Assembly (NCBI GenBank): GCA_044345405.1
Contig: JBIJBE010000004.1
Coordinates: 32,001-96,000, forward strand
Origin: Bdellovibrionota bacterium
GTDB taxonomy: Bacteria; Bdellovibrionota_C; UBA2361; OMII01
Length of the DNA: 64,000 bases
Reading direction: 5' to 3'
Notes under the pieces: model-generated
Databases searched by the model: none
Seen by the model: only the letters and a program-made list of their open reading frames with translations
What the model was told of the DNA's origin: nothing
Shown: positions 4,330 through 38,873 of the stretch, one piece after another
How positions within the stretch are numbered: position 1 is the stretch's first letter
Layout: each line of letters starts with the position of its first letter
Program-made: the position numbers and the translations under genes

Positions 4330-5445
4330 TTAGCGCTGAAACTCTACCAGCTTGACATCGAGCCCTACGATCTCGCCACGACGGTCGAATGACCACCGAC
4401 CTATCACCCCGTCGAACGAGTGCGTCAGCAAATAATCAGGGATAGCTCCGCCGCTCTGCAGCGCCTCATGAAGAGCGCGGAACGACTCGAAGGCCGAGGC
4501 AAAGGTAAGCGGCACACTATTCAGCTGCCCGTACTCTCGCTCAAATTGAGCCAAAATCTCACGCCCGGCCGGCGTAAATATTTCGTCCGGCGCGCCGTTA
4601 TCGATGTAGTAAATCGGTGGTAGCTGCCCCTGCGCTTTGGCGCGAAACGATTCGCTTCCCGGGTGGTAGAACGCGAGCACATCCCCCTTGAATTGGAGCT
4701 CCTGTAATTGCTTCAACGCGGCAAGGAACGCCGCCTCGGGCATCACATTAAGGAAGATCGCATCCGCTCCACCTCGAACAAGTTTTAAAAGCGAGCTTTT
4801 GTAGTCGTAGGGCGTTGGAATTACCTCCTCTATCTGAATCACAAGCGGAGCATCACTCGCTAGCCCGCTGAGACGCGCGCGAATCCCCTCGTTCCATTCG
4901 GTTTGAGCCGATAGGATGCCAAGCCGCTTATATCGTTTAAGCGCGTGCTCAAAGAGTATGTGCGCTCCCCGATCATCACCCTGAATGGTGCGAAAAATGT
5001 AGTCACCAGCATCCGAGATCTGAGGTGCTGTAGTACCCGCGGCGATCGCAACCACCTTCTTCCGCTCCAGATACGGGGCGACAGCCATGATCGATGAGCT
5101 GCAGGTGTACCCGAGTATCGCTCGCGCGTGATCAATCTCAACGAGCTTCTTCGCGATCGACACCGAAGTTTTGCCGTCGCATCTATCATCCTCCACAACG
5201 ATGTCGTAGGCGTTATTCGCCAGCACCTTGTTAGCGAAGAGGATCGCGTTCCGAATATCGACGCCGTAGTTCGACGCCGGACCGGTCAGGGAGGTAGAGA
5301 TACCGATCGTCGTCTTTGGGACAGCCTCCGTGGAGAACGGGAAGCAAAGTTGTAACGCGCACACTCCCACACACCACAAAACTACCGATCGACTTGACCG
5401 TCCGAAACGGCGGGCCATTTTTTCGCGATGATTAAAGAACTTCAT
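4330..5445 (-). CDS. Periplasmic substrate-binding protein, branched-chain amino acid (LivJ/K-like) family; orphan
   Basis: Signal peptide; IG...SLTG....G, EDDRCD, ILGYTCSS, ISDAGDYIFRT, DYKSSLLKL, FDGVIG...FD..G. Confidence 0.85.
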   Translation of the reverse strand: MKFFNHREKMARRFGRSSRSVVLWCVGVCALQLCFPFSTEAVPKTTIGISTSLTGPASNYGVDIRNAILFANKVLANNAYDIVVEDDRCDGKTSVSIAKKLVEIDHARAILGYTCSSSIMAVAPYLERKKVVAIAAGTTAPQISDAGDYIFRTIQGDDRGAHILFEHALKRYKRLGILSAQTEWNEGIRARLSGLASDAPLVIQIEEVIPTPYDYKSSLLKLVRGGADAIFLNVMPEAAFLAALKQLQELQFKGDVLAFYHPGSESFRAKAQGQLPPIYYIDNGAPDEIFTPAGREILAQFEREYGQLNSVPLTFASAFESFRALHEALQSGGAIPDYLLTHSFDGVIGRWSFDRRGEIVGLDVKLVEFQR

Positions 5446-5626
5446 AGAAACCTCGGGATGGAACTTTTTATGGGATGTGCGACATCTTCTTTGCTCGCGA
5501 GATCATCGTTTCACTTACTTTTAAAACCCACAGATACGATCATACCCCAGCTAAACGGTGGGTTGAAGTTACCGACGGTATACGATACCCGAAACCTTTT
5601 TTATAAGGCCGAGCCAGCTGACGCAT

Positions 5627-5777
5627 GGGAGGGCGGTCATTCCCCCCTACGCTAAAGCTACGGGGGACCAGCCTGAGCGAACCCCGTCGCTGCGCTTTGG
5701 GGCACAAGCCGCGTTACGCACGGCGACCATGCTTCTCCCCCAGAGCTTCAGCGACGGTGGAGAATGGTCGCCCTCCC
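5627..5777. repeat. REP-like inverted doublet (REPIN-like) carrying three nested ~30-nt palindromic insertions
   Basis: GGGAGGGCGGTCATT... left arm and ...AATGGTCGCCCTCCC right arm; same arms at 36060-36178; insertions at 5642-5671, 5680-5708, 5732-5762. Confidence 0.8.
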
Positions 5778-5803
5778 AAGTGCCAGGTCGTGACTCCAGT
5801 CAC

Positions 5804-5845
5804 AAAAAACGGGGGCGCGAACCACTACGGTCCGCGCCCCCGTTT
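5804..5845 (-). terminator. Rho-independent terminator of cyclophilin gene
   Basis: Minus strand AAACGGGGGCGCGGACC-gtagt-GGTTCGCGCCCCCGTTTTTT. Confidence 0.85.
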
Positions 5846-10805: not shown

Positions 10806-11417
10806 ATGTGTCAGGAGGTTACTGTGATACCCGCTGCCGTGCGTCCCCCCTCAGAGCCAGTAGAGCTGGCCCTTAGTAGCTCTCGCGCCGTACTGAACGC
10901 GTCCCGGTTGGAATGCGCGAGTCTACTCGCCCGAGCCAGAAAACGAGCCGCGCGGTATCGAGAGAAAGTGAAGGAGCGTGGATACCGCGCCGGTCTCGAA
11001 CGAGGATTCACGGAGAGCTCGGCGCGATGCACGGAAGCGATTGAGTCTCTGGGCGCTCTGTATGCCCGCACTATCGACGCCGCCCATCGGGATGCCGCTC
11101 TCGTGGCCCATCGAATCGTTGAAGAGTTGATCGATACCCACCTAAGGGAGGACCCAGAGCTTATTACGCGGTGGATCTCCCGAGCGATGGAGCACCTTAA
11201 GACTCATCAAGGCATGACCCTGAGGTATCACCCCCGTTATCACGAAACGCTAGGTCATAGCGCGACGCACATCCCTTCGGGAATGACGATATCGATGGAC
11301 CCCACCCTCAAAGAGCTGGATTTCGCTATCGATACGAACGTTGGAGCGGTGACCTTCTCGTGGAGAGAACTGTTACGCCCTCTCAAGCCATCACACCCCA
11401 CCGAGGTATCTCTATGA
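10806..11417 (+). CDS. FliH/SctL-like type III export stator protein
   Basis: Helical N-half with GY.AGLERG (GxxxG) repeat, RYHP and MDPTL...D..I.T..G C-terminal pattern; ATGA-coupled to FliI/SctN. Confidence 0.7.
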   Translation: MCQEVTVIPAAVRPPSEPVELALSSSRAVLNASRLECASLLARARKRAARYREKVKERGYRAGLERGFTESSARCTEAIESLGALYARTIDAAHRDAALVAHRIVEELIDTHLREDPELITRWISRAMEHLKTHQGMTLRYHPRYHETLGHSATHIPSGMTISMDPTLKELDFAIDTNVGAVTFSWRELLRPLKPSHPTEVSL

Positions 11418-12721
11418 CCTCAAGCTTCTCACCTTTTTCGCTCACCGGAACGATCGTATCGGTGCGGGGCTCGACGATCCTCGCCCGCCTACCCCAAGGT
11501 TCAGTGGGAGATATCTGCTGGATACAGACTCGAAACCGGGGAGAGCTCCGCGCGCAGATAGTCTCGTTTGAGGAGAATACCTTCTCCCTCGCCCTCTTTG
11601 ACGAACCGGAAGGGATATCACCCGGCGCGCAGGTGAGAACGCACGGTTCCCAACTCGCGATCCCCGTGAGCGCCGCGCTCTTAGGATCGGTCATTTCCCC
11701 CCTGGGTATGCCCCTTGAGGAAACAACGAAACCTCTCCCGTGTAGCGAGATGCGCTCCATCTTCGCGCCTCCCCCCATCGCGACGAAAAGACCGCTCATC
11801 TCCAAGCCTCTCATCACCGGCATCCGCTCAATCGATGGATTTTGTAGACTCGGGCAGGGGCAACGTGTCGGCATCTGCGCGCCAGCGGGAATCGGGAAGT
11901 CGACCCTCCTTGGGATGATCGCGCGACGCGCTGAGGCTGACGCGATCGTCGTGGCGCTCGTCGGGGAACGAAGTCGAGAGGTGCGGGAGTTTATCGAGGA
12001 GACCCTTGGCGAGGAGGGACGCAAACGGAGCGTCGTCGTCGTCGCGACGAGCAGTGACTCCTCACTCCTTCGTCAAACGGCCCCGTACACAGCCACAACC
12101 ATCGCGGAGTATCTACGGGACCAAGGTCTCAACGTGCTCCTGATCGTTGATTCTCTCACCCGCCTCGCGCGAGCTATTCGAGAGACAAGTATCGCGGCGG
12201 GAGATCTTCCTGTTCGGCACGGGTACACGAACGCGGTGTACACCCAATTACCCCGGCTTGTTGAACGGCCCGGCACATCGTCAAACGGCTCAATAACCGC
12301 TCTCTATACGGTCCTCACAACCACAGAGGACGACATCGATCCCCTAGCTGATGAGGTAAAGAGCCTCCTCGATGGTCATATCGTTCTCTCAAAAGAGATG
12401 GCGAACCTCGGTATCATGCCAGCGATCGATATCACGCAAAGCATCTCTCGCCTCAGCGGCAGGTTGACAGCCCCTCAGCCTCTCGGACAGGCGCGCGCGA
12501 TTCAACGCGCGGTGGCTCGGTACATCCGTGAACGGGACATCGCCCTTCTTGGCGGCTCACCGGACGCGGAGCTTCAAAGCATCCTGCGCAATCAGGAGAT
12601 GATACGGCAGGTCCTTTCTCAGGATACGAAAGAGTCCTCATCACTAGAGGTGACCGAGCACGAGCTAAGTCGTTTGTGTTCTACGATCGCTCCGTCGTAT
12701 GTGGGGGAACCGTCGCCATAG
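11414..12721 (+). CDS. Type III export ATPase FliI/SctN family
   Basis: TGIRSIDG, GQGQR, APAGIGKST Walker A, VGERSREVREF, DSLTRLARAIRE, GSITALYTVL, DGHIVLS, SISR. Confidence 0.9.
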   Translation: MTSSFSPFSLTGTIVSVRGSTILARLPQGSVGDICWIQTRNRGELRAQIVSFEENTFSLALFDEPEGISPGAQVRTHGSQLAIPVSAALLGSVISPLGMPLEETTKPLPCSEMRSIFAPPPIATKRPLISKPLITGIRSIDGFCRLGQGQRVGICAPAGIGKSTLLGMIARRAEADAIVVALVGERSREVREFIEETLGEEGRKRSVVVVATSSDSSLLRQTAPYTATTIAEYLRDQGLNVLLIVDSLTRLARAIRETSIAAGDLPVRHGYTNAVYTQLPRLVERPGTSSNGSITALYTVLTTTEDDIDPLADEVKSLLDGHIVLSKEMANLGIMPAIDITQSISRLSGRLTAPQPLGQARAIQRAVARYIRERDIALLGGSPDAELQSILRNQEMIRQVLSQDTKESSSLEVTEHELSRLCSTIAPSYVGEPSP

Positions 12722-12755
12722 AATCCGACATCAGGGAGGGCCCGTCTACTGGCTT

Positions 12756-13244
12756 TTACTCTTCGTCACTAACGGAGATGCTCGAGAGAAACTTCTCTCC
12801 CACCGCCACAAGGCGTTGGTCCGTGAAGGTAACCCCAGCGAAGATAGTCGCTTCAGGGGTAGCGATGAGCCACTGCATCAAGCTCTCACCGGTCTCTCTG
12901 AGACGCATGTGCTGCACGGCGCCCGGAAACTCCTCACACGAACGAGGAGTAACGGAGATAGTCTCGAGTTGCTCGTTATCTTTAAGCTCCTCTCGCAGGT
13001 GTTCCGCGAGCTGCTCGGATGAGGTGACTTCGAGCACCTGCCCCGCGGATACCGCAAGGTCGAACTGTAACTCAGCACCCGCGTACTCCTCATCGAGAGA
13101 GAGGGTGACCGTCTCTCCATCACTATCATCGTCCTCTGAGTCGTCAACCCACGGCTCGCTCGGAAACTCACCACTCACGGTTGTCTCAGGAACGGTGTAG
13201 CGCTCCCACGGTTGCTTTACGATCTTCTCGACATCAAAGGACAT
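12756..13244 (-). CDS. Acidic hypothetical protein
   Basis: 162-aa ORF, ATG with GAGG RBS, fills intergenic space; no family recognised. Confidence 0.6.
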   Translation of the reverse strand: MSFDVEKIVKQPWERYTVPETTVSGEFPSEPWVDDSEDDDSDGETVTLSLDEEYAGAELQFDLAVSAGQVLEVTSSEQLAEHLREELKDNEQLETISVTPRSCEEFPGAVQHMRLRETGESLMQWLIATPEATIFAGVTFTDQRLVAVGEKFLSSISVSDEE

Positions 13245-15797: not shown

Positions 15798-16116
15798 AGG
15801 AGCGCTCTGATTCGGTGCGGGAGTCCGCCCCTCCCGATCTATAATCTTTGACGCGAAGCAGCAAGCAACGGGTGCCATAAAACGGAGCCTGTGTGCCCAC
15901 GGGGCCTGGAAACCTAAAACCTGCCCCAGACCATGCCCGGCCACCCGGAAACGAATCAGCACAATCCGCTCAAGCACTTAGAGGACCTTGGTCTCATGGT
16001 GAGGCCCGTCTGCCCACCTACAAATCTACCTTCTGCAGAAAGAAAGCCGAAAACACTAAAGATTTTGGGGAAAGCAGTCGTCCTCCCCGACGGTGGGAAG
16101 AGGCTATACATCTGAT

Positions 16117-17844
16117 ATGGGGCGGGCCATGCGCGGAGCTTTTTGTCTTTCGCTCGTTATACTAGCGATTCAGGTATCAACCGAGACCCATGCGCAGAGC
16201 AAGATGCCGTGCATGGTCAGTGGTCGCGCATGTCAACTGCCGGGCACACAGGGGTTGGGAAACAACATGGTTTCCATGCCACTGGGGACGTTCAACTCTC
16301 AATTTACGGGGACTAGCCGACCATCCTTGGGCGCAGGCCTCGGCGTATCGCCAAAGGACGGGTCTCTTCTCTACTCCGGTGGAGATGTAAAGCTCGTGGA
16401 GGGCACGGGATTCACGACCACCTTTAACAAATCGGGTAACAGATTCATTTCGGAGTTCGCTGAGAACGGAGATCTGCGAGAGATCGAGATCTCAAATGGT
16501 ACGCTCAAGGTAATATCTCCCGACGGCTTTTCAACAACCTACGGACAGCCCTTTCAGGGTCGATATTTTCCAACGCTCATAACTGATCCAGATGGACACC
16601 GATTATTCTCAGCAACCTGGAAAAATGGACTTCCACTAACGCAAGTAGACCAGGTCGGCGGTACGACCACGTTTACCTCCGACTCTTTTGGTCGTGTACG
16701 CTCAATTAAAACTCCAGAGGGATTAGTCTACTCTTTTACCTACAACCGGTTGGGCAGGCTTCAGAAAGCGCAAGTTGGAGACGTCACGACTGAGTACTCC
16801 TATGATGCAGCCGGAAATCTAACTGAGATTAAGCCATCGACGGGGCCAAGCACCCTCTTCGCATATGGGAAAGACAATGTCCTCGTCGGAACAGGAGATG
16901 GCAACACGACAACGACGATATCGTATTCCACAACTTCAACAACCGCCGAGAGCACCAGCGGGAGCTTCACTCAATTTTCAACGACAACCTTTGGGAAGTT
17001 CGGCCGTATGTACCTACCCGTTAAACAGGAAGGGGCAGATGGATTCGCAAAGTCGGGCGGCTCCGTCCTAGCTACGATAGAACGAGACGGCTTTGGCAAC
17101 GTTATTAAATCGACAGACGCGTCTGGGCGATCGACCTCCTACCAACTGGTCAAGGGTCTTCCAACGAAGGTCACATCGCCAGATAACGTCGTTGTCACCT
17201 TCACCAGAAATCCCAACGACAAGTATCGCGTTACCTCTCAGTCAACCTTCGGAGCGAATGGCGCACCTCTCTCGACAACCGATTACGCATGGGACAGCGG
17301 CAAGCTGAAATCAGTCACGAGTAAAGATTCACAAGGAAGAGTCGTTGGAGTTCAGACGATCGCTCGCTCGGGCTCCTCTACAACAACCACCGCGAAATTT
17401 ACAGAGTACTATACCTGGGATCCAACGGGGCCAAAGGGTCGACTGATCGGCATTGAATCCATCAGCGGGAAACAGTCCATTACATTCAACGGTCTCGGAG
17501 TGCCGACCCAATTCGACACAAATGGTGTGACTACCACAGTGACTCGAGACGTATCTCCTGACGGAAGAGTAAAGGTCACCACAAACCGGGGAGGTCTGGT
17601 AGCTCTAGCCGAGTCGAATTTCCTAGGAACAGAGGTGAGCAGCTCACTTGGTGACAGTCAGGGCCGCTTCATCGCACAGAACAATCTGAGATCCAGTGGC
17701 ACGGCACTCAAGAGCAACGCCGCGGAGAGTTGGAGTGTGATGTCGGGTAAGGGTTTACGCCGAGGAAAGACGACATCGGCATTTACCGTGTCATCTCCAG
17801 GAACAAACAAGACAACACGATCCTCCCAAAGGTCTGGATGGTAG
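16117..17844 (+). CDS. Exported RHS/YD-repeat protein A (short, no C-terminal toxin)
   Basis: Signal peptide (...ETHA-Q); YD-like repeats (FTYNRLGRL, YSYDAAGNLT, RDGFGNVIKSTDASG); start 16117 or 16129. Confidence 0.8.
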   Translation: MGRAMRGAFCLSLVILAIQVSTETHAQSKMPCMVSGRACQLPGTQGLGNNMVSMPLGTFNSQFTGTSRPSLGAGLGVSPKDGSLLYSGGDVKLVEGTGFTTTFNKSGNRFISEFAENGDLREIEISNGTLKVISPDGFSTTYGQPFQGRYFPTLITDPDGHRLFSATWKNGLPLTQVDQVGGTTTFTSDSFGRVRSIKTPEGLVYSFTYNRLGRLQKAQVGDVTTEYSYDAAGNLTEIKPSTGPSTLFAYGKDNVLVGTGDGNTTTTISYSTTSTTAESTSGSFTQFSTTTFGKFGRMYLPVKQEGADGFAKSGGSVLATIERDGFGNVIKSTDASGRSTSYQLVKGLPTKVTSPDNVVVTFTRNPNDKYRVTSQSTFGANGAPLSTTDYAWDSGKLKSVTSKDSQGRVVGVQTIARSGSSTTTTAKFTEYYTWDPTGPKGRLIGIESISGKQSITFNGLGVPTQFDTNGVTTTVTRDVSPDGRVKVTTNRGGLVALAESNFLGTEVSSSLGDSQGRFIAQNNLRSSGTALKSNAAESWSVMSGKGLRRGKTTSAFTVSSPGTNKTTRSSQRSGW

Positions 17845-20800
17845 AGACGGAGGGATTCGAAATGATACGAGAGGGGCGGGCCGTGATTACAAATGATACC
17901 ACAAGAAAATGTTCGACCAGGCGCCTTGGAGGATTCCGGCTCCGACGCCTCATCATCGTAACAATGATTACTGTTGGCCTACTTGCACAGGGTTCACCAG
18001 CGAACGCACAGACTGGGGGAGATCCCGCCATCATCTTTAAGACCTTCGAGGTTGCGGGAACGTTCGGTCCTCAAAGGGGATACGGTGCGAGCGAGAACGG
18101 AAATCTTACTATCCCCATCGATACGATACTAGCGGGCCCGGCCTATCTCTCTACACAAGCCACTCCCTCAGGATTCGCCGACGAAGGATTTGGCCTCGGA
18201 GTTAAGTGGATCCCTTCACTGGAGAACTCATCTGAAGGCCTAAGGCATAGGAGCGCTAATCACGTAGAAACCTTCTTTCTTCCGAGCGGAATTTCCAAAG
18301 ACTTTACACGAGGGGATTTACGGCAGCTGCGCCCCATCGCGGGTGCAAACACACCGAAAGGGTCATTCGAGCTGATCTATCCGGACGGCTCTTCGGAGGT
18401 GTATAGTCAGGTAACCTCAAAAGGGGTTTTTCTCTCCTCCTCTATCGATCCATTCGGAAACACGACCACATTCTCATACGGCGCAAGCTCCCCCATTCCC
18501 ACCGCTATCACACTTCCGGCGGGACAAGGAGTGCTGGCAATTGAGAACGATGGAAAATTTGTCACGAAGATGACCAGTCCGGATAAGGTCTCTATCTCGT
18601 TTTCCTACACGAACAGCCGCATCACTCAGGTAACCGGCCCTGACGGCAGCGCAGTTCTTTCCCTCCAGTACGACAAGCTCGGCCTTGGGCTCCCCACCTC
18701 ATCTCGGGACGCAGCGGGAAACCAAACCCTCCTAGCTTACAAAGTTAAACCCGGGACACAGGGACCAGCCGCCATAGCGGGATTAAGCACGCCAGACGGA
18801 GAGCAGTACACATTTGAACATTCAAAGACCTCCGCCACCATGACCAACTCCAAAGGAGTCACCACCAAGGTTACCTTGGCGACGAGTCCGGGTTCCGGCG
18901 ATATCTATGCGGAGAAGGTCTTTCAGGGTGGTCGATTAGCCAGCACCGTCACGTTAAACAACGACGGCAATATAATTGAGAGCGTTGATGCAAGGGGCCT
19001 CTCAACGAAATACTCGTACGCCGCAAATGGCGCTATCGGCAGTAACGATACAAGCTCCCCCGTGGTGACGGGAGTATTGCTCTCGGATGGATCCAAAATC
19101 ACCATGTCCCTGGATTCCCGAAATGCGTTCCGACCCAATAAGATTGTAGAGACATCTTCAGGTGGAGTAACTAAGGAGCAGAACTACTCATGGAACGGTC
19201 CCAAACTCCTGTCAACTGAGGTGCGCTCCCAAGGTCAGCAGGTCAACCAGATTACATTCGCCTACAACGGGAATAGCATGTTCCCAAGCTCCTCGGAGAT
19301 GACTTCCACGGAGCAGGTAACCACGAATTCAAACGGGTTGCCCGTCCGTGCCCTTGCGTCAAACGGTGACGTGATGACATTTGAGCGCTCCTCTACCTCC
19401 AATCTTTCGAATGTAAATGGAGTTCCGCATCTCACGACGTTGAGCGTCGCTGCTGATAGCTCCGTTACGACTACAAGCCAGAGCCCAACAGGTCAGGTGA
19501 CGAGGACCAGTAAAGTGTCGGGCGCATCCGACAGGGTTACTCTGTTAAGCCCCTCAGCGAAGGGGATGACCCTCGCCCTCGCTCAATCATCTAACAAAAC
19601 TCTCAACCAGAATGGAGATTCTTCGTCCACGCAGAGTTGCGATTCGGTTGTCGATAACTGCACGACGACAGTCACCTGCAAGCCAAACGGAAAGGGCGGA
19701 TGCGACTACGTGACCGACACGAAATGCTCCGAGAAGACATGCACCCCGAATTGTGATGGAAAGTTGTGTGACGCGGATGATGGATGTGGGAATCCATGTA
19801 ACTGTGATTTTAAGAAACTGAATGTATCCAAGAACGGATCAGGAAGTGGTATCGTTAAATCAAATCCTACCGGAATCGACTGTGGAGGCTCCTGCTCGCA
19901 TTCGTATGCGACGGGGACCAAGGTATCTCTCACGGCCAACCCAGACAGTGAAAGCGTTTTTGTGGGATGGAGTGGAGCGTGCAGCGGCACCGGCTCGTGC
20001 TCAGTAACGATCTCCGCCGACACGAACGTTACCGCAACCTTCAACAAGACTCCCAAGACCTATCCACTGACGGTGAGTAAAAACGGCACAGGCTCCGGAA
20101 CCGTGACTTCTAACCCAACAGGCATAAACTGTGGTGCTACTTGCTCCCAATCGTACAACTCAGGAACGCAGGTTACCTTAACCGCAAGTGCCGCCAACGG
20201 TAGCGAGTTCGCAGGATGGAGCGGACCATGCAGTGGAAAGGGTTCCTGCACGGTGACGATGGCCGCAGCTACTGGTGTCACAGCAACCTTCAATACAAAG
20301 ACGGTCAGCTATGATGTAAAGGTAACTAAAAACGGTACAGGATCAGGCACGGTAACCTCTAATCCAACGGGAATAAACTGTGGGAGCGACTGCTCCGAAT
20401 CTTACACGTCAGGAACCAAGGTGACACTCACCGCCAGCCCGGCAAGTGACAGCATCTTTGCCGGTTGGAGTGGGCCTTGTAGTGGGACAGGAACATGCAC
20501 AGTTACGGTATCCGCGGCGACAAACGTCACCGCCACCTTTAATACCCAGGTAGTTACCTTCCCCTTAACGGTAAACAAGGTGGGGACAGGATCGGGCACC
20601 GTCACCTCGAGTCCAACAGGCATCAATTGCGGAAGTACCTGCTCTCAAGCATACGCTTCAGGTACGCAGGTTACGATGACGGCTAGTCCTAACAGCGGCA
20701 GCGTCTTTGCCGGTTGGAGTGGCGCCTGCAGCGGAACCGTACCTTCCTGCACCGTGACGATGTCTGCGGAAAGAAAGGTTACCGCTCAATTTAATCTTGG

Positions 20801-21101
20801 CTCTCAATGCGTCCCTGATGGCTCCAACGGGAGCGGAACGTGTTGCAACGGAAGGCCACGATGCTCTGATAACTACTGCCGCGCTAGCTGCCAAACGTCG
20901 TGCATACCCGATGGGTCCAATGCACCGGGCACATGCTGTTCCGGAAACCGATGTACGGATTCGTACTGTCGAACAAGTTGCCCACCTTTGGTCTGTCAGG
21001 GCAAGACATGTAACACCAATGCCGATTGCTGCTCCGCGTACCCGCTTTGCAAGGGTGGAAGATGTTCCCTGAATGGGGCCGGAGTTGGCTTAGGCTTTTA
21101 G
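17838..21101 (+). CDS. Exported RHS/YD-repeat protein B with four divergent InlB-B-type repeats and Cys-rich tail
   Basis: Signal peptide (...PANA-Q); YD-like repeats (DPFGNTTTFSY, RDAAGNQT..Y, VDARG.STKYSY); 4x L.V.K.G.GSG.V.S.P.GI.CG..C...Y..GT.V.LTA......F.GWSG.C...C.V.......V.A.F; true start may be 17862 or 17883. Confidence 0.85.
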   Translation: MVETEGFEMIREGRAVITNDTTRKCSTRRLGGFRLRRLIIVTMITVGLLAQGSPANAQTGGDPAIIFKTFEVAGTFGPQRGYGASENGNLTIPIDTILAGPAYLSTQATPSGFADEGFGLGVKWIPSLENSSEGLRHRSANHVETFFLPSGISKDFTRGDLRQLRPIAGANTPKGSFELIYPDGSSEVYSQVTSKGVFLSSSIDPFGNTTTFSYGASSPIPTAITLPAGQGVLAIENDGKFVTKMTSPDKVSISFSYTNSRITQVTGPDGSAVLSLQYDKLGLGLPTSSRDAAGNQTLLAYKVKPGTQGPAAIAGLSTPDGEQYTFEHSKTSATMTNSKGVTTKVTLATSPGSGDIYAEKVFQGGRLASTVTLNNDGNIIESVDARGLSTKYSYAANGAIGSNDTSSPVVTGVLLSDGSKITMSLDSRNAFRPNKIVETSSGGVTKEQNYSWNGPKLLSTEVRSQGQQVNQITFAYNGNSMFPSSSEMTSTEQVTTNSNGLPVRALASNGDVMTFERSSTSNLSNVNGVPHLTTLSVAADSSVTTTSQSPTGQVTRTSKVSGASDRVTLLSPSAKGMTLALAQSSNKTLNQNGDSSSTQSCDSVVDNCTTTVTCKPNGKGGCDYVTDTKCSEKTCTPNCDGKLCDADDGCGNPCNCDFKKLNVSKNGSGSGIVKSNPTGIDCGGSCSHSYATGTKVSLTANPDSESVFVGWSGACSGTGSCSVTISADTNVTATFNKTPKTYPLTVSKNGTGSGTVTSNPTGINCGATCSQSYNSGTQVTLTASAANGSEFAGWSGPCSGKGSCTVTMAAATGVTATFNTKTVSYDVKVTKNGTGSGTVTSNPTGINCGSDCSESYTSGTKVTLTASPASDSIFAGWSGPCSGTGTCTVTVSAATNVTATFNTQVVTFPLTVNKVGTGSGTVTSSPTGINCGSTCSQAYASGTQVTMTASPNSGSVFAGWSGACSGTVPSCTVTMSAERKVTAQFNLGSQCVPDGSNGSGTCCNGRPRCSDNYCRASCQTSCIPDGSNAPGTCCSGNRCTDSYCRTSCPPLVCQGKTCNTNADCCSAYPLCKGGRCSLNGAGVGLGF
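19815..20797 (+). repeat. Four tandem ~79-aa divergent InlB-B (Flg_new_2-like) domain repeats
   Basis: Repeated GTGSGTVTSNPTGINCG / GWSGxC units visible in protein and DNA. Confidence 0.85.
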
Positions 21102-21261
21102 AAAGTAGGAAGCAGATGCGGATCGCGATGCTAATTAGTGTTTTGATGATGAGAGGGAAGGATGGGCTTAACCATCGACGGAAATTGGTTATCCCTCCTG
21201 AAGGGAGTTCTGCCGCCTACGCACAAACTAATTGTATATGTCTTCAAGAGGGCCCTTAAAT

Positions 21262-22404
21262 ATGAATACAATTAGCACTCCCAAGAGGACCTTCCGGCTA
21301 CTTAGTTTCACAGTGACCAAATGGCAGCCGGCCGTCCATTACTCACTTCTTCTGATCATTTATTTCCTGATAGGAACGACACGTTGCTCATTTCACGAAG
21401 CAGCAGCACAACAGTACGTTTGGATGAACCCTTGTGATGGTTTCTATAGTCAGCCGAGTGTCGGTCACAGTGTACATGAACTACACACTAAAATGTGTGA
21501 GTTCGGCTACGACAAGAAATTCCCGATAAATGGCGTTAGATATCCCGATGGCCGAATCGTCTTCTTCGATAATCGCCGCCCCTTAGCAGCTTCGATGGCC
21601 AAAGTGCAGGTCTATGTTAGAGTTCACGACTGCGACGCGCTGGCTCCAAAAACCGTGAGAAACAATCCAATGCTAAGGAAGCCGATAGTTTTATGTGATG
21701 GTACTACTATTGCGCCGCCTGACGAGATGACGTGGGGAGATGCCATTCGTATGCGATCAATTGGAGGAGCTAGATTCAATGGTGGGCACATTCCAGAGGT
21801 ACCTCTTTACCCGCCAGGACGACAGCAGGCCCCTTCAATTCGCCCACCCTGTGACACCGATGGTATGCCGGCAGCGCCTATCGCACCTCGCTTGCCAGCA
21901 CCGACAAGCTCCACTTCGACTCCGAGCCGGGCAAGCCTTCTAACTCGGTGCGGAGGCTCTGGGTTGATGCCCGCGCTACCGCTCCTACCGACGGCAATTG
22001 AATCTACTTGTAATTACCTGGGTGCACCGGAGGAAGTTGGCGCGGGCGCGGGAATTGCAGCGACTGGAGCCGTCACTGCTTACGAAGCTTACGTACTTTC
22101 AGGGGCAGCCTCGGCGGGACTGTCATTCACAGAGTGGGCTGTCTCAACTGGCATGTACGCTTCCTCGACCCTTGCCCCAGCGGCACCCGCGGCTGCCTGT
22201 GTCGCGACAGCGGGCCTCGCATATGGCGCGGGCCGGAGTGTTGATTATGTAACTGGCAACAGAATAAGTGGTTACGGGGCAACCGTTGGTTGTGCGGTCT
22301 ACGACACTGCCGCAGTGATATGGCGCTGGAAATTTGACTACGGCATAACTGGCGCATGTTGGGACGGAATCGGACGAGGGCCGACATCCTTTTGGGGTTG
22401 GTAG
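21262..22404 (+). CDS. Exported protein: N-terminal ParB-like polymorphic-toxin domain, Pro-rich linker, Gly/Ala-rich hydrophobic C-terminus
   Basis: Signal-like segment ending AAA-Q; FYSQPSV...GY...PI..VRYPDG....DNRR..AA.......VH...TWGDAIRMR pattern. Confidence 0.7.
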   Translation: MNTISTPKRTFRLLSFTVTKWQPAVHYSLLLIIYFLIGTTRCSFHEAAAQQYVWMNPCDGFYSQPSVGHSVHELHTKMCEFGYDKKFPINGVRYPDGRIVFFDNRRPLAASMAKVQVYVRVHDCDALAPKTVRNNPMLRKPIVLCDGTTIAPPDEMTWGDAIRMRSIGGARFNGGHIPEVPLYPPGRQQAPSIRPPCDTDGMPAAPIAPRLPAPTSSTSTPSRASLLTRCGGSGLMPALPLLPTAIESTCNYLGAPEEVGAGAGIAATGAVTAYEAYVLSGAASAGLSFTEWAVSTGMYASSTLAPAAPAAACVATAGLAYGAGRSVDYVTGNRISGYGATVGCAVYDTAAVIWRWKFDYGITGACWDGIGRGPTSFWGW

Positions 22405-22621
22405 TGGAATGATAACAGTGGGCGGAGACCGAAACATGACATGGAGGCGACAGTTATGGACACTAAAGTTCCTTACTAATTATGGAGAAAAAGAATGTCA
22501 TTTTTCTCCGTGTAGCTGTCGAAACGTAAGGTCCCCCAGTTTCGTGAAAAACTCTAAATCTTCAGTGCTACCAACCCAGGCGGCAGGTCACTAAGTCCCA
22601 TATACTGTTGGATAATTGTTG

Positions 22622-22648
22622 TAAAAAAATCATTCGATTTGCCGAACC
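22622..22648 (+). promoter_or_regulatory. Sigma28 (FliA)-like promoter upstream of HD-domain gene
   Basis: TAAA-N15-GCCGAACC versus consensus TAAA-N15-GCCGATAA, exact spacing. Confidence 0.45.
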
Positions 22649-22730
22649 TGTTCGATTACAATGCGGGGACTTCAGGGGTTCGCTAGTGGGCTTTTTTCTT
22701 AGATAAATGTTTAGCTTGAAAGTGATTTAA

Positions 22731-23477
22731 ATGTCTAAAATAATAGGCACTCCTCCATCAAACAAACCCGCCACTGACATACCTAATAAGGTTTCTAACT
22801 CGGCAGGGGATGACTCTGAATTCGTTTCAGCCTCCCTTCCTTCTCGATTATCGACCGATCTTTTGCAAGAAACCCTTACTCGTATTCGTTTAGATTCTCG
22901 TTATGCTGAGAACTTACCATATGGGAAGGTGCGCAAAGGGCACCCCGAAGGAAGTGTAGAAAATCACATTGCAGAAGTAGAACAAAACGTTTCTGAGATT
23001 TGTGCCCTCTCGCGTTCGCTTGGAACTGAAATCCCACAAGAACTAATAATTGAATTACTAATAGTCACTCATGTGCATGATACTTTTAAGGGACAGTCTA
23101 AAAAGCAAGCACGAATTGAAGATCCAGAAAGCCATGCCTCACTGGCGCGCGCGTTTCTGTCGGAATTTTCCGCAGATGACAGGCTCCTCTCATGTGTCCA
23201 ATACCATGATGTCCCGTATTCGATGTATAGGAATTTCAAAAAATTTGGAGATGTAAATCACGAAAGACTTTCAAGCTTAATCGGAAACGTGAAAGACCTC
23301 CATCTCTTCACACTTTTCCAGATTGCCGATAACACCACTAAGGGGAAAGCCCCTGAACAAAATGCAACTTCGTCAACTGAATGGTTTATCAATCAAGTCT
23401 CTGGTCAGCTTATCAAATCGGATTACTATCTAGCAATTTACAGAATGCTTGCTGAAAGAAAGGCAACCCACAACTGA
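22731..23477 (+). CDS. HD-domain metal-dependent phosphohydrolase with disordered Ser/Pro-rich N-terminus
   Basis: H(PEGS...H), HVHDTFK, SHA, YHD, IADN; lower GC than flanks. Confidence 0.8.
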   Translation: MSKIIGTPPSNKPATDIPNKVSNSAGDDSEFVSASLPSRLSTDLLQETLTRIRLDSRYAENLPYGKVRKGHPEGSVENHIAEVEQNVSEICALSRSLGTEIPQELIIELLIVTHVHDTFKGQSKKQARIEDPESHASLARAFLSEFSADDRLLSCVQYHDVPYSMYRNFKKFGDVNHERLSSLIGNVKDLHLFTLFQIADNTTKGKAPEQNATSSTEWFINQVSGQLIKSDYYLAIYRMLAERKATHN

Positions 23478-24007
23478 GTCTGTCAGGGCTCCCTCTCTCT
23501 GAACACTAATTACTAACTCAGTAGTAGCGGCTTTTCCTCCATCCGGCAGGGGCGCAATGGGGGTGAGGAGAGGCTCATAACCTATGAATAGCTTGTGAGC
23601 ATGGCTTGATAGTTTGTTCGCGCTGTTGACGGCGGTATTGGATGGGCCATGTGTGACCGTCCATTCCCCGGCGTCTTAGGGCCCCAGGCGTGAGACTTGT
23701 ATTTTTGCGTCTCCAACAATCCAGGAGGAGCAAAAATGACACGACCACGACATACAGATGAAGAACGATGCGCGATAGGTGAAGTTATACTAACAACCAG
23801 CACGAACGCGGGTCGTATCGGGCACGTCTCGACCAAACCTCGAGACCTCCAATCGTGATATGCCCCCAACCACCCCCTGCCTACCCAGAGAGGCCCCTTT
23901 TTGTTGCGTAAGCGCCTCAATATACAAGAGACTCCCCCTCGCCCCCCCTCCCTTTGCTCCCCTTCTAAAAGCTACTAGAATGGGGCGACCTAACTGGGGA
24001 ACGAGGC

Positions 24008-31126: not shown

Positions 31127-32484
31127 ACCTCGTCGCGGAGATCCTGACTCATCCAATTGACGAACCATTCATCGTAGATGAGGATCTGAAGCTCTCGTAT
31201 GGCGAGATGACAAAAGCGGTTACAACGCTACGCGCGCTCACAGCGAGCCAGGGCATCTCGCCTCAGTCCGTTGTGGCACTTCGTGCAGGGCAGGATACCG
31301 CTTCGGTCCTCACCCTCCTGGCGCTCCTTGAGATGGAGTGCTCGGTTTTAGTGGTTCACACTCGATGGCCTGACACAATGCTCAGTGAGGCTCTCAAGAG
31401 GGCACGCGCGAGTCACATCCTTACCCCTAGAACACACACGGAGGTCGAGGTTCAACCAATTTCGGCTTCGCACGTCCCTCCCTCATGGGCAACAGGCGCG
31501 TCAGTGATAGTGGCGACCTCAGGAAGCACCGGGGTTCCTAAACTCGCGCTCCTCTCCCTCTCATCGCTCCTCGCGAGCGCTCGAACATCCGCGCCAGCGT
31601 GCGCGTTGACGAGGCATGATCGTTGGCAGCTCTCGCTTCCCCTCTTTCACGTTGGAGGTCTCGGTATCCTTTTTCGATCGCTCGTTACTGGAAGCTCCAT
31701 CTCTCTTACCAGATCTGACGACGGCATCGCGGATGCGGCGACAACCCATCTTTCATTAGTACCCACCCAGCTCTACCGTCTTCTGAGAGAAGCGAATTAC
31801 CGCGAAGCGCTTCGACAAAAAAGATGTGTCATGCTTGGAGGTGCCCCGATCGGAACACGAGTCCTCCGCGAAGCGATCGAAGTAGGGATACCGGTTATGA
31901 CAACGTACGGCCTCACCGAGATGGGATCGGTGGTCACGCTCGCGTCCACACCGGTCATCTTAGAAGATGGAACTGTATCACTTGGACGACCACTTCCAGG
32001 CAGAGAGATACGCCTCTCGTCAGATGGCGAGGTGCTTACGCGCGGTGAGACCCTCTTTCAGGGATACATCACTACCGATGCGCTTTCCCTCCGGTGCGAT
32101 GAAGAAGGTTGGTTTGCCACCGGCGACCTCGGAGAGATCCTTTCCGATGGAACACTCGCCATTATTGGGCGCAAGGACGCTCAATTTGTCTCTGGTGGAG
32201 AAAATATTCACCCAGAGATGATCGAGAATGCTCTTACCTCTCTTCCGGGGATCATAGCGGCGTGCGTTGTGCCAATGCCGAACGCTGAGTTCGGACACCG
32301 ACCGTTCGCGTTCGTTGTATCGCAGGGTGCCTCACTGGACCTTAACGAGATTCGAGAAGCCCTTCGTCCGCTCATACCGAGCTTCGCTCTTCCAATCGGG
32401 GTTCAAGAAGCTCCCGCCGAGCTTCTCACACCAACCGGTAAGATTAGTCGGGCGATGGCAGTTCAGGTGGCGGCCAATCGGTAA
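31123..32484 (+). CDS. menE: o-succinylbenzoate-CoA ligase
   Basis: TSGSTGVPK, LPLFHVGG, SLVPTQL.R, YGLTE, TGDLG, GRKD..F.SGGENI.PE. Confidence 0.93.
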   Translation: MNLVAEILTHPIDEPFIVDEDLKLSYGEMTKAVTTLRALTASQGISPQSVVALRAGQDTASVLTLLALLEMECSVLVVHTRWPDTMLSEALKRARASHILTPRTHTEVEVQPISASHVPPSWATGASVIVATSGSTGVPKLALLSLSSLLASARTSAPACALTRHDRWQLSLPLFHVGGLGILFRSLVTGSSISLTRSDDGIADAATTHLSLVPTQLYRLLREANYREALRQKRCVMLGGAPIGTRVLREAIEVGIPVMTTYGLTEMGSVVTLASTPVILEDGTVSLGRPLPGREIRLSSDGEVLTRGETLFQGYITTDALSLRCDEEGWFATGDLGEILSDGTLAIIGRKDAQFVSGGENIHPEMIENALTSLPGIIAACVVPMPNAEFGHRPFAFVVSQGASLDLNEIREALRPLIPSFALPIGVQEAPAELLTPTGKISRAMAVQVAANR

Positions 32485-32700
32485 CCGCTCCCCCCGTTTT
32501 TGCCCCTGTTTCAGCGTGCAACGACGATCGGGAACTTTCCCGGAGAACCAACTGGTTAGCGGGGGAGTCGGAGCCTCCCTGCTCAAGAGGCCCCCAACCT
32601 TCTTGACTACAAACGTACCTGGCGTCATTGTCCTCGGCTGACCAGATATGAGAGCCGCAGGCAACAACAGCGGCGCCTGATCAGGTTCGGAGGGATAGAG

Positions 32701-33438
32701 ATGACGACACTACACAATGTATTGCGAGCAGATGCGCGAGTAGACAATTTCGGAGGCTCGCTCTCAAGATTCTGCCAGGAGGCCCTCAGGGGAGCGCTCC
32801 AATCGGTTGACCACTTTTATGGGTACGCTCTCTTTGAGAGCCCCTCACCCCCTAAAGTTGAACTTGCTTCGACCGAGATCGTGCGAGAGTTAGTCGCTAT
32901 CGGCGTAAAGGTCCTTGAAATTGAGAACAAACGCAATCACGTTCTTATAACACCAGACATGGCAAAGAAACTGGAGGTGATTTTTCGACATCTGCCTGAT
33001 ACGGTATCCCGAGAAGGATGGTCGTCGAGTCTCATAAATGCCGTGAGTGGCAGATGCAAGGACATGGCGTGTTGCCAAGACGAAAAGCAAGACCCTCACC
33101 GTAATTTGCTCTACCACGCAGTGCTCGGAAGCCTCCTGCGACTCGAGTCTATTCCACCATCAATCGCGTATCCGACGCTAAGAATGATCGCTCAATGGGG
33201 AGACCTAAAGAAGGTCGCGATGGGCCAGGCCGATGGTCAACTCTCGACTCCATACTGGACCTCCACCTTAGAGATCGGTCAACAACTCATACGGATGGTA
33301 TCTGATGTTTTTGACGAGATAAGCGCGCAAAAGCCGTACGACGCGACTAAGCACCAACTTTCCGCGGCGGGCGTTCAACGCGCGCTCAACATACTTGCGA
33401 CAGACCCCATGATCGCAAAGCTTATGACACCATCATGA
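32701..33438 (+). CDS. Hypothetical protein
   Basis: 245-aa ORF with GGAGGG RBS; no family recognised. Confidence 0.65.
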   Translation: MTTLHNVLRADARVDNFGGSLSRFCQEALRGALQSVDHFYGYALFESPSPPKVELASTEIVRELVAIGVKVLEIENKRNHVLITPDMAKKLEVIFRHLPDTVSREGWSSSLINAVSGRCKDMACCQDEKQDPHRNLLYHAVLGSLLRLESIPPSIAYPTLRMIAQWGDLKKVAMGQADGQLSTPYWTSTLEIGQQLIRMVSDVFDEISAQKPYDATKHQLSAAGVQRALNILATDPMIAKLMTPS

Positions 33439-33646
33439 ATCGGGTGAAACCAACTATGCATTCCCGTGACCAGGTGCCTACATTCTAATGCAGCCCCTAG
33501 CCCGACGCTTCCGCTCGCAAGTACTGGAGGGATGCTCAGCTACTCATAGACACGCCGCAGCTCAGTTTCGGTACATAGGTAATCCGTCTTCACCAGACGG
33601 ATTGGTCAGACTATTTTTGTCTATCTAAAATTTTAGGGCACCATCA

Positions 33647-34909
33647 TTAGCGAACCAGCGCGATCGTATCTTTGATAATATCGCTAGCCGTTGAGATCAC
33701 CTTTGAGTTCGCGCCATACGCTCGTTGGAGAACCACAAGCTCCACGAACTGTCCGGCGAGATCAACGTTAGAATACTCAAGCGATTGCGTGAGAAGCTTG
33801 CTTCTCGCTCCAGTGCCCGCGATACCGGAGGTAATCCCACCCGATTTATCAGTAGTCGCGAAGGTCGAAGTTCCGCTTCGAGCAAGACCATCGCGATTGG
33901 TAACGGTCGCGACGGAGATCGTTCCAACGCGAGCGGTCTGTCCGTTAGTTAGACGGGCGTTAATAACTCCCTGGCCGTTTATCTCATAGCCAGAGATCTC
34001 ACCCACTCCCTGGCCGTTCTGCGCGTAGTTGGTAACTAACGTCGCCCCAGCGAATTGAGAAAAGGCGCTTAAATCCGCGGTGATCGTCGAAGGAGCGGCT
34101 CCGGTCGACCAGGTAGCGTTGATGTTCATCACGGCTTGAGCTGCCCCCTGTTGTGACAGTCGCCCATCGGTGTCAAAGGTGAGTTGTGTGGACCCTATCA
34201 ACACCGGCTGATCAGCGGCCTGACCAACATCCGCGCCGTTCGCGTACGCTTGAACGGTCCATGTGTTCAATCCGGTCCGATAGTAGCCGAATACAACCTC
34301 ATGCCGAGCGCCGAGCGAATCATACACCGACACGGTGGTGGTTGAGGCTGCGGTATTATTTATCTCCTGGAAATTCAGTGGCACTTGGGGAGGCGTGGAC
34401 GAGTTAGCGGAGCTGTTGAGATTGCCGAAGAGCTGCGCCTGCGTTGTGGGTACGATCTCAAGATCGACCTTACGCATATCGATCGGTCCAAGGGTCACCG
34501 CGTCTCCACCGGTGTATCCGAGCACACGAAGGCCATCGAGTGTCGAGAGAAAGCCATCTTGATCGACTTGAAAGGATCCCGCTCTCGTGAGCTGAGGATT
34601 CGTCACATCACCGACCTGAAAAAAACCATTTCCGCTCAGCGCGACATCAAGATCCCGGCCGGTTCCCTGAATGGGTCCTACGTCGAAATTAGACTGAATA
34701 CCCTTTACAGTGACACCATCGCCAGCGCCTGAAACAACACCGGCGACCCGATCGCCGGGCGTTTCGCCGAGCATATCAGCGAAGATAGCTCGCTGATTTT
34801 TGAACCCAACGGTGTTGGCGTTGGATATGTTATCGCCGACAATGGCGAGAGCCTGTCCATGAGCGGTAATACCTTCCCGGCCCGTATTAAGTGCGGATTC
34901 TATTCTCAT
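33647..34909 (-). CDS. flgE: Flagellar hook protein FlgE (hook/basal-body family), solitary
   Basis: GDNISNANTVGFK, TGRDLDVAL.G.GFF, TRAG.F..D..G.L, VYDSLG..H, LEYSNVDL...FV.L...QRAY.ANSK. Confidence 0.9.
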   Translation of the reverse strand: MRIESALNTGREGITAHGQALAIVGDNISNANTVGFKNQRAIFADMLGETPGDRVAGVVSGAGDGVTVKGIQSNFDVGPIQGTGRDLDVALSGNGFFQVGDVTNPQLTRAGSFQVDQDGFLSTLDGLRVLGYTGGDAVTLGPIDMRKVDLEIVPTTQAQLFGNLNSSANSSTPPQVPLNFQEINNTAASTTTVSVYDSLGARHEVVFGYYRTGLNTWTVQAYANGADVGQAADQPVLIGSTQLTFDTDGRLSQQGAAQAVMNINATWSTGAAPSTITADLSAFSQFAGATLVTNYAQNGQGVGEISGYEINGQGVINARLTNGQTARVGTISVATVTNRDGLARSGTSTFATTDKSGGITSGIAGTGARSKLLTQSLEYSNVDLAGQFVELVVLQRAYGANSKVISTASDIIKDTIALVR

Positions 34910-34983
34910 GGTTACCTATGCATCCTTTTGGCGCGTCCTAGCCTGGGCAATCCCTGCCCACTCCTCCAACTAGAACGTTAGGG

Positions 34984-34999
34984 TGCAAAATGTCGGCCA
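34984..34999 (-). promoter_or_regulatory. Sigma54 (-24/-12) promoter upstream of flgE
   Basis: Minus strand TGGCCGACATTTTGCA, GG-N10-GC spacing with TTGCA -12 box, ~75 nt before ATG. Confidence 0.55.
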
Positions 35000-35145
35000 T
35001 CGGTGCCCATCCCTGAAACCGGGGGGTTAGTCAGGATGGGAGTGACTATTTTGCCTAGTCACCCTTCCGGTTAACTGCCCAAATTCCACCACAGGTATAA
35101 ACGACCTCATTTCCGACATAGTCCCTCCGGTATACAGTGGTCCCT

Positions 35146-38687: not shown

Positions 38688-38873
38688 TGTATCGGAACTT
38701 TCGGGGAGCGACTCAAGTTATTGAAAAGATATGAACAAAATTAAAGGCCAAAATCGCAAAAGTAAAAGAGCGTTCTAGGCACGACTCTCCTATACCCTTG
38801 AATATTCGTGGGGTTATTACCCCTTCCTACGGCACACCTTTGGTATTTCGTTCCATACCCCTCAGGACTCCGT

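Follow-up and report, generated by a model that had tools for sequence, protein, structure and literature searches.

The subject of this report is a locus within a 64,000-nucleotide stretch of DNA from a Bdellovibrionota bacterium (assembly GCA_044345405.1, contig JBIJBE010000004.1, positions 32,001 to 96,000; hereafter the window), where four co-oriented open reading frames (ORFs), termed A, B, C, and D, lie on the + strand between positions 16093 and 23477, in the place given by a preliminary description of the same DNA. The first two encode exported RHS/YD-repeat proteins that are paralogs, occur together as an adjacent pair, and are predicted to bind one another, and in most of the loci that can be read further they are followed by another exported protein, which in the window (C) carries a toxin-like domain. 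The locus is probably a variant of the RHS toxin systems. The reading that we put forward, tentatively and in the knowledge that it may well prove mistaken, is that of a patchily distributed accessory conflict module founded on a two-piece YD-repeat assembly, the tail of which would bind a surface while an adjacent exported effector would cooperate with it. The arrangement of A, B, and C rests on prediction and comparative genomics in five genomes of a single genus. The preliminary description, which proposed a cage assembled from two halves, toxic cargo supplied in trans, and an HD hydrolase as a fourth component, is supported in part.

Both A and B belong to the RHS group, with Pfam RHS_repeat matches well above chance (E values of 8e-16 for A and 5.5e-10 for B) and matches to NCBIfam YD_repeat_2x in each, and the RHS-type features of each are contained in about half the usual length of an Rhs protein. 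Mature A was modelled by AlphaFold2 (AF2) with a predicted local distance difference test score (pLDDT) of 72 and a predicted template-modelling score (pTM) of 0.68; the model is confident over residues 50-470, with about 42 beta-strands that all form beta-hairpins, and it closes with a low-confidence C-terminal tail. When compared with the PDB by Foldseek, the model gave 157 matches at E<=1e-3 (best 1.2e-18), and its neighbours include the Rhs shells of type VI secretion systems (T6SS), Tse5, teneurins, and the BC components of toxin complexes (Tc), at template-modelling scores of 0.2-0.38, low values that are expected because A is of half size. In B, the RHS module gives way to Cys-rich stretches on either side of four Flg_new_2 (PF18998, divergent InlB B-repeat; Pfam E 1.3e-37) domains, a layout that agrees with the earlier account of an RHS part of about 600 residues with an adhesin-like tail. 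The last segment of this tail (residues 987-1087) has no Pfam or NCBIfam family match, and Cys-rich stretches also follow the RHS module in B-related proteins elsewhere. No toxin is fused at the C-terminus of A, which ends in the low-confidence tail, or of B, which ends in the InlB-B and Cys-rich repeats. Neither protein matches the Rhs-associated core (TIGR03696, with its aspartyl protease and PxxxxDPxGL end), and a regular-expression search for a terminal DPxG[LM] motif found none in A or B, as had been noticed beforehand for the RHS-terminal NP....DP.G motif.

The N-termini of A, B, and C, judged by eye from the translations, each consist of a basic start, a hydrophobic stretch, and an AxA motif followed by Gln (..THA/QS, ..ANA/QT, and ..AAA/QQ), which places the predicted mature starts at Gln35 of A (nucleotide 16195), Gln58 of B (nucleotide 18009), and nucleotide 21409 in C. 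The signal peptides cleaved before Gln that had been reported for these proteins were therefore seen in all three, but they are no hallmark of the locus: Gln occupies position +1 in 30 of 146 crude AxA signal-peptide-like N-termini across the genome, against a Gln background of 3%, and is the commonest residue there, so that it marks nothing specific to A, B, and C. By this count, exported proteins throughout the genome seem to favour an N-terminal Gln.

The assembly is 99.4% complete, and its RHS repeats are confined to the A/B locus. No match was found anywhere in the genome to PAAR (PF05488), Phage_GPD/VgrG (PF05954), or Hcp (PF05638), profiles for which the controls responded in 3, 2, and 1 of 14 genomes in that order, or to the Rhs-associated core, for which the control rang in 3 of 14; the absence of PAAR and VgrG previously remarked upon thus extends to the genome as a whole. 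TcdB_toxin_midN (PF12256) had no match in the genome, and neither had VRP1 (PF03538), but the control for VRP1 rang nowhere, so this search is uninformative on TcA.

Judged by their alignment, A and B are ancient, collinear paralogs of one beta-hairpin module of about 520-550 residues. BLASTP aligns A 119-497 with B 152-547 at 26% identity over 430 columns (E 1e-11), and in a multiple alignment the two are collinear across the whole module. TcB and TcC each supply a consecutive portion of a single spiral; A and B, being collinear throughout, are instead duplicates of one module. Of the proposal that a cage is made from two paralogous halves, loosely in the manner of TcB plus TcC, the paralogy has accordingly stood while the comparison with successive parts has not. 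An A-family profile detected the module in five of the 35 genomes of the genus (G000, G010, G014, G017, and G024) and in one of the 39 genera of the order (91 genomes); among 124 genomes of the phylum, it gave elsewhere only partial matches inside ORFs of 1297-2808 amino acids in two other genera. The protein databases hold one close relative of A (P0009, 61% identity) and otherwise generic RHS proteins only, and a search of genome contigs with A (P0001) alone found no relative. A same-strand B-type gene follows A in all five loci that are readable past A (the window, G010:C59, G014:C75, G017:C131, and G024:C236), two further copies of A ending at contig edges and standing outside this count, and the A/B contigs of the other genomes share none of the flanking genes of the window. 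In a 14-row tree of the module, the first genes and the second genes separate on one branch, and when the long-branch G017:C131 pair is omitted, a B clade of five (100/99) and an A clade of seven (93/97) are recovered. Subclades are mirrored on the two sides, with G000+G014:C85 among the A proteins facing G000+G014:C369 among the B proteins, and G024+G014:C75+G017:C25 facing G024+G014:C75, the pattern expected if an old duplication had been followed by inheritance of the two together. A and B thus form a pair in position and in descent.

Binding between the two was predicted from residues 1-480 of mature A and 1-515 of mature B, with an 11-row alignment for each and three controls. The interaction prediction score from aligned errors (ipSAE) was 0.66 (0.65, 0.66, and 0.68 in separate runs) against 0.00 for the best control, with 145-156 contacts, a partner pLDDT of at least 83, and agreement between runs in at least 94% of contacts. 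In calibration, 58 of 80 solved complexes attained the ipSAE mark used, as did 2 of 110 mismatched pairs; these counts apply here only roughly because our own alignments were supplied. The interface comprises two blocks in each chain (A 131-216 and 394-479; B 149-236 and 424-506), its residues recur about every 20 residues, which is the length of one hairpin, and the contacts of lowest error join A 396-406 in antiparallel fashion with B 427-437, strands that are equivalent in the A/B alignment. The predicted complex can be read as a pseudo-two-fold dimer in which curved sheets would meet along rows of hairpin ends, a geometry compatible with two half-shells. Multimer prediction had been named beforehand as a check on the two-halves proposal, and its outcome favours binding.

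Neither C nor D matches any Pfam or NCBIfam family even at E<=10, and searches of PDB sequences gave nothing meaningful for C or for a profile of its domain. An exhaustive HMMER search with C residues 50-215 recovered 23 proteins at E<=1e-3. P0006 and P0007 match C at 89% identity across the ParB-like domain but go over to unrelated C-termini after a Pro-rich linker, so the variable end is the C-terminus even though the toxin-like domain is N-terminal; P0035/P0091 are 54% identical in the domain and have a signal peptide as well. In weaker matches (E about 1e-4, 38% identity over about 115 residues), the related domain is C-terminal, and four of ten matches tested carry the Rhs-associated core (E 5.5e-18 to 1.6e-24) directly before it, while a fifth is a fragment that retains the end of the core. 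An AF2 model of the C domain (residues 60-205) has a pLDDT of 84 and a pTM of 0.77, and the top 46 among the Foldseek matches listed from the PDB are all of the ParB/sulfiredoxin (Srx) fold (sulfiredoxin, Atu1540, ParB N-domains, KorB, PadC, Noc, SbnI, and a serine kinase), with probabilities up to 1.00 and E values that are all weak (best 4.4e-3). The domain contains the motifs FYSQPSV and FDNRRPLAA, and alignment A1 shows at least 90% conservation for S24 and N65, either R or T at position 66, and an invariant R67. This conserved Ser (FSQ) and N-[RT]-R fit the definition of Tox-ParBL1 by Zhang et al. (2012; PMC3482391), namely, a predicted ParB fold with a conserved N-terminal Ser and an [NT][RT][RT] motif; the same paper lists RHS, filamentous-haemagglutinin, MafB, and WXG/LXG proteins as carriers and Imm-SUKH and Imm44 as the associated immunity families. 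Leads from the Atlas point to MafB clusters (0.77-0.78, under the 0.9 bar) and to PT-VENN clusters. The initial identification of C as a ParB-like toxin-domain protein is therefore sustained by relatives behind Rhs cores, by structural comparison, and by the Tox-ParBL1 motifs.

Beyond its linker, C becomes rich in Gly and Ala (35-45% together over residues 241-320, numbered from Met11) and poor in charged residues (10% or less); the region is predicted to have no classical transmembrane helix, and such Gly/Ala-rich regions have no Pfam match. Orphan cassettes corresponding to the C-termini of C relatives were not found by tblastn in the genome of the window. The gap of 326 nucleotides that follows C contains a single, unconvincing ORF of 61 amino acids, which accords with the earlier observation that no small immunity gene is present, and no convincing immunity ORF follows either C or the corresponding gene of G010, a result obtained without a search for Imm-SUKH or Imm44. 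At another locus (L021, G024:C236), an ORF of 172-202 amino acids without a family match lies at 5202-5807, overlapping the third gene at its end; it is a possible immunity candidate at that locus only.

The kinship of C with domains normally fused behind Rhs cores, and the orphan toxin cassettes that Rhs loci often hold according to PMC3482391, raise the question of whether the locus is a classical full-length Rhs toxin gene that has decayed into pieces and left such a cassette behind. This is the least credible of the explanations considered, as A and B are collinear copies and not consecutive fragments, A, B, and C bear separate signal peptides, the reading frames of A and B have stayed open in five genomes despite identities of only 22-37%, the two lineages co-diversify, and no remnant of an Rhs core is present anywhere in the genome.

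What accompanies A and B from genome to genome is a slot for a third gene, and not C itself. In three of the four loci that are readable downstream (the window, G010, and G024), B is followed by a co-oriented gene whose product has a signal-peptide-like N-terminus, and the survey proposed at the outset, for a constant A-B pair accompanied by a third gene that varies, was positive to that extent. All three products contain a Gly/Ala-rich stretch of low charge. In the window, this stretch follows the ParBL1-like domain; in G010 (L033, G010:C59, 4102-5301), it likewise follows an N-terminal domain and reaches 50% Gly plus Ala; and in G024, it precedes a domain without a family match. The G010 protein has a sub-threshold match to a Scabin-like ADP-ribosyltransferase (E 0.0073, 16.6 bits against a cut-off of 27, covering 13-130 of 130 profile positions), which is a lead only, and searches of PDB sequences gave nothing meaningful for the G010 and G024 proteins. 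In the B ortholog of G014:C369 (L032, 4-2784; 37% identity over 614 amino acids), the position of the InlB repeats is taken up by a Pro/Thr linker and by a Gly/Ala-rich extension cut short at the contig end, and this protein may be a fused form of the third gene. The tails of B differ in every genome.

In the two-piece assembly that we favour, A and B would each be exported by the general secretory (Sec) pathway on their own signal peptides and would then pair into a pseudo-symmetric heterodimer through equivalent strands and rows of hairpin ends, an arrangement that, on the predicted binding, would suit half-shells set rim to rim. The changeable C-terminal tail of B, represented here by four InlB-B domains between Cys-rich stretches, would bind a surface, and the next gene would serve as a swappable slot for a separately exported effector that may work together with the A/B assembly, being shielded or carried by it. 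Since no immunity gene follows, the effector would be aimed at non-kin cells; toxins that resemble polymorphic toxins but lack immunity genes may, as PMC3482391 notes, target distantly related organisms.

Several points weigh against this account. The genome encodes Omp85-family proteins and two secretins, matches from which the cell is taken to possess an outer membrane; export by Sec alone thus goes no further than the periplasm and would leave A, B, and C there. The module is carried by five genomes only, and with the long-branch G017:C131 pair included, the central split between A and B in the tree is weakly supported (65/42). Close cousins of a true partner also pass the complex prediction, and A+B is the sole pair scored besides the controls; closure of A+B into a shell would be an extrapolation from the predicted contacts. 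At G017:C131, there is no third gene, and an ORF on the opposite strand comes after B. The third-gene proteins and the G014 tail resemble one another in composition only (BLASTP E>=0.04), and no homology is claimed for them. A homolog search for C in the 34 other genomes of the genus came back empty, as did two metagenome scans for the C family (one with alignment A5, one with P0091), so that the ParB-like gene has been seen beside A/B in the window alone.

In the main rival explanation, A and B would constitute a secreted or surface YD-repeat structure for adhesion or binding that holds no cargo, the next gene would encode an independent Sec-exported effector or bacteriocin equipped with a membrane-active Gly/Ala-rich segment of its own, and the two would have become neighbours only through the clustering of conflict genes in accessory islands. 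We regard this as a reasonable possibility, if a less probable one. A and B have no core protease, no identified plug, and no fused toxin, all of them hallmarks of encapsulation in known Rhs proteins; the tails of B, with their InlB-B repeats and Cys-rich stretches, are adhesin-like; and the A-B pair of G017:C131 without a third gene, the lack of detectable homology among third genes, and the C relatives P0007 and P0091, in which the Gly/Ala-rich part is missing, are all readily accommodated. It accounts less well for the co-oriented exported gene that comes directly next in three of four readable loci despite differing surroundings, for a C domain whose family is otherwise fused to Rhs cores, and for the Gly/Ala-rich stretch that lies within the B polypeptide itself in G014:C369.

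A more specific version of the two-piece assembly, in which A and B would form a pseudo-symmetric capsule that closes in the periplasm around part of the separate effector, most likely its Gly/Ala-rich uncharged segment, with no autoproteolysis and with the tail of B providing the aim, seems unlikely. The Rhs cavities quoted in PMC10684867 measure about 32,000-35,000 cubic angstroms and enclose toxin fragments of 15-16 kDa, whereas mature C has about 330 amino acids, and the lack of any plug or protease in A and B also speaks against full encapsulation.

Gene D had been counted as a member of the system and labeled an HD hydrolase. With regard to the label, an alignment of 25 sequences shows invariant H79, H116-D117, H135, H159-D160, and D200, which fits an HD-type metal site, and the Atlas leads are HD clusters (feature score 0.96, template-modelling score 0.64-0.71), but Pfam HD (PF01966) has no match to D (P0004) at E<=10 and matches only two of the 25 family members (best E 0.032); PDB searches with the sequence and profile of D gave nothing meaningful. 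Membership fared worse. A four-gene system in which D is an antidote or immunity protein, reversing a phosphoryl-transfer modification made by a toxin of the ParB/sulfiredoxin fold, could be imagined from the position of D, co-oriented and 326 nucleotides after C, from its lack of a signal peptide, from its HD-like metal-binding residues, and from the phosphotransferase activity of ParB-superfamily members such as sulfiredoxin that is mentioned in PMC3482391. Such a role is nonetheless very improbable. The only homolog of D among the 34 other genomes of the genus is that of G048 (52% identity), a genome without A/B in which it stands among different genes; the other four A/B genomes have no D; the family numbers at least 600 members in many lineages, mostly stand-alone proteins of about 184 amino acids and mostly unnamed; and the guanine plus cytosine (G+C) content falls around D, to 0.487 in 22001-24000. 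Because its family is large and it is absent from the other A/B genomes, D is treated as a bystander.

The closest precedents for the two-piece assembly are summarized here with their differences. The Tc BC cocoon (TcB-TcC; PDB 4igl and 4o9x, found among the structural neighbours of the A model at E 3e-12 to 6e-12) is a shell of RHS hairpins contributed by two polypeptides from adjacent genes, a design that A and B may share, their gene pair being conserved and their binding predicted. The differences from Tc BC are that A and B align collinearly as paralogs and are predicted to join at equivalent strands, that TcdB_toxin_midN and the Rhs-associated core with its protease are without matches in the genome, and that neither protein ends in the toxin-like domain; a TcA-type gene was not found either, with the silent VRP1 control noted above. 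Classical Rhs/WapA proteins (RhsA, 7q97, and Rhs1, 7pq5) share the YD-repeat fold and provide the best matches to the A model (E about 1e-18), and they also share the toxin-domain family of C and the possession of polymorphic C-terminal ends. They differ in being about twice as long as A or B, in being loaded through PAAR/VgrG where A and B have Sec signal peptides, and in having the Rhs-associated core; in addition, no immunity gene was found after C, and the toxin-like domain here is part of a separate exported protein, at its N-terminus.

Tse5 of Pseudomonas aeruginosa (PDB 8cp6; E 2.9e-18 to the A model) offers a parallel for the chaperone role that A and B may have toward the Gly/Ala-rich segment, since its Rhs shell, according to PMC10684867, is a chaperone for a membrane-active, largely disordered toxin fragment. 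Tse5 carries a pore-forming fragment and is made as a single chain, self-cleaved into three pieces and discharged by the T6SS, whereas the A/B locus has neither protease nor T6SS and its putative cargo is the product of a separate gene. C shares with the Tox-ParBL1 domains of PMC3482391 a predicted ParB fold, the Ser and [NT][RT][RT] motif, and kin located behind RHS repeats, but its domain directly follows a signal peptide and is N-terminal in a free-standing protein. The bacterial teneurin-like proteins (bioRxiv 10.1101/2025.11.11.687626; PDB 9ifo, E 1.9e-15 to the A model) are YD shells independent of the T6SS, as A and B would be, and differ in being, as described there, single large proteins with encapsulated C-terminal toxins and immunity proteins. 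The parts of the locus, namely, YD repeats, InlB-B repeats, and Tox-ParBL1, are already known. Full-text literature searches (supplements and most subscription papers lying outside them) found no description of paired, co-diversifying, half-size, Sec-exported RHS proteins without a core that are combined with a swappable effector, nor of an obligate heterodimer of half-size YD-repeat proteins.

The positions of the genes and their parts are collected in Table 1.

Table 1. Genes of the locus and the regions recognized within their products (positions are those of the window).
Feature	Position	Strand	Size or basis
Gene A, exported half-size RHS/YD-repeat protein	16093..17844	+	583 aa from GTG; alternative starts ATG 16117 (575 aa) and ATG 16129
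Gene B, exported RHS/YD-repeat protein with tail	17838..21101	+	1087 aa
RHS module of B, residues 58-600	18009..19637	+	Pfam 5.5e-10; alignment A2; paralogous to whole mature A
Cys-rich linker of B, residues 601-659	19638..19814	+	Read from translation
Four InlB B-repeat (Flg_new_2) domains of B, residues 660-986	19815..20795	+	Pfam PF18998
Cys-rich repeated C-terminal tail of B, residues 987-1087	20796..21098	+	Read from translation
Gene C, exported toxin-like protein	21262..22404	+	380 aa from ATG 21262; alternative start, open TTG 21232 (390 aa); Atlas record begins at residue 11
ParB/sulfiredoxin-fold toxin-like domain of C, P0003 residues 60-205	21409..21846	+	HMMER, AF2, Foldseek, motifs
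Pro-rich linker of C	21847..22029	+	Relatives P0006 and P0007 diverge from here
Gly/Ala-rich low-charge C-terminal region of C	22030..22401	+	Composition
Gene D, HD-like protein	22731..23477	+	248 aa; judged outside the system

The start of B overlaps the end of A by 7 nucleotides, and the earlier length of about 575 residues for A corresponds to the ATG at 16117, the GTG at 16093 giving 583. On either side, the locus is bordered by ordinary genes, with a FliH-like protein, an ATPase, agmatine deiminase, a CN-hydrolase, and a VF530 protein upstream and a thioesterase followed by MenF, MenD, and MenH downstream. G+C content is slightly reduced across the locus (0.49-0.53 compared with 0.55-0.58). 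A scan of the locus for promoters and terminators returned fewer sites than shuffled sequence did. Across the genus, divergence is too great for synteny to indicate an insertion: the CN-hydrolase flank shows only 38-41% identity, and MenF gave no match at E<=1e-30. Further upstream, at 10806-13200, the FliH-like gene (E 4.7e-5), an ATPase of the ATP-synt_ab family (5e-76), and a 174-amino-acid ORF without assignment lie beside MurJ, and no further flagellar or injectisome genes are present among the annotated neighbours of the FliH-like gene. Downstream, an ORF at 38808-39824 has a match to the Thg1 (tRNA-His guanylyltransferase) domain (1.3e-13).

In the characterized RHS/YD shells met in this analysis, the toxin begins as part of the shell polypeptide and is released by a built-in protease. 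If the two-piece assembly proposed for A and B is correct, a shell of paralogous halves without a protease, working with a separate effector, would mean that container and cargo can be uncoupled in nature, and the locus would represent a Sec-dependent, T6SS-independent route for RHS systems in a little-studied phylum. Should the capsule version hold, it would be the first RHS-type cage to take interchangeable cargo in trans. Even without cargo, an obligate heterodimer of half-size YD-repeat proteins would itself be, as far as full-text searches show, an undescribed architecture.

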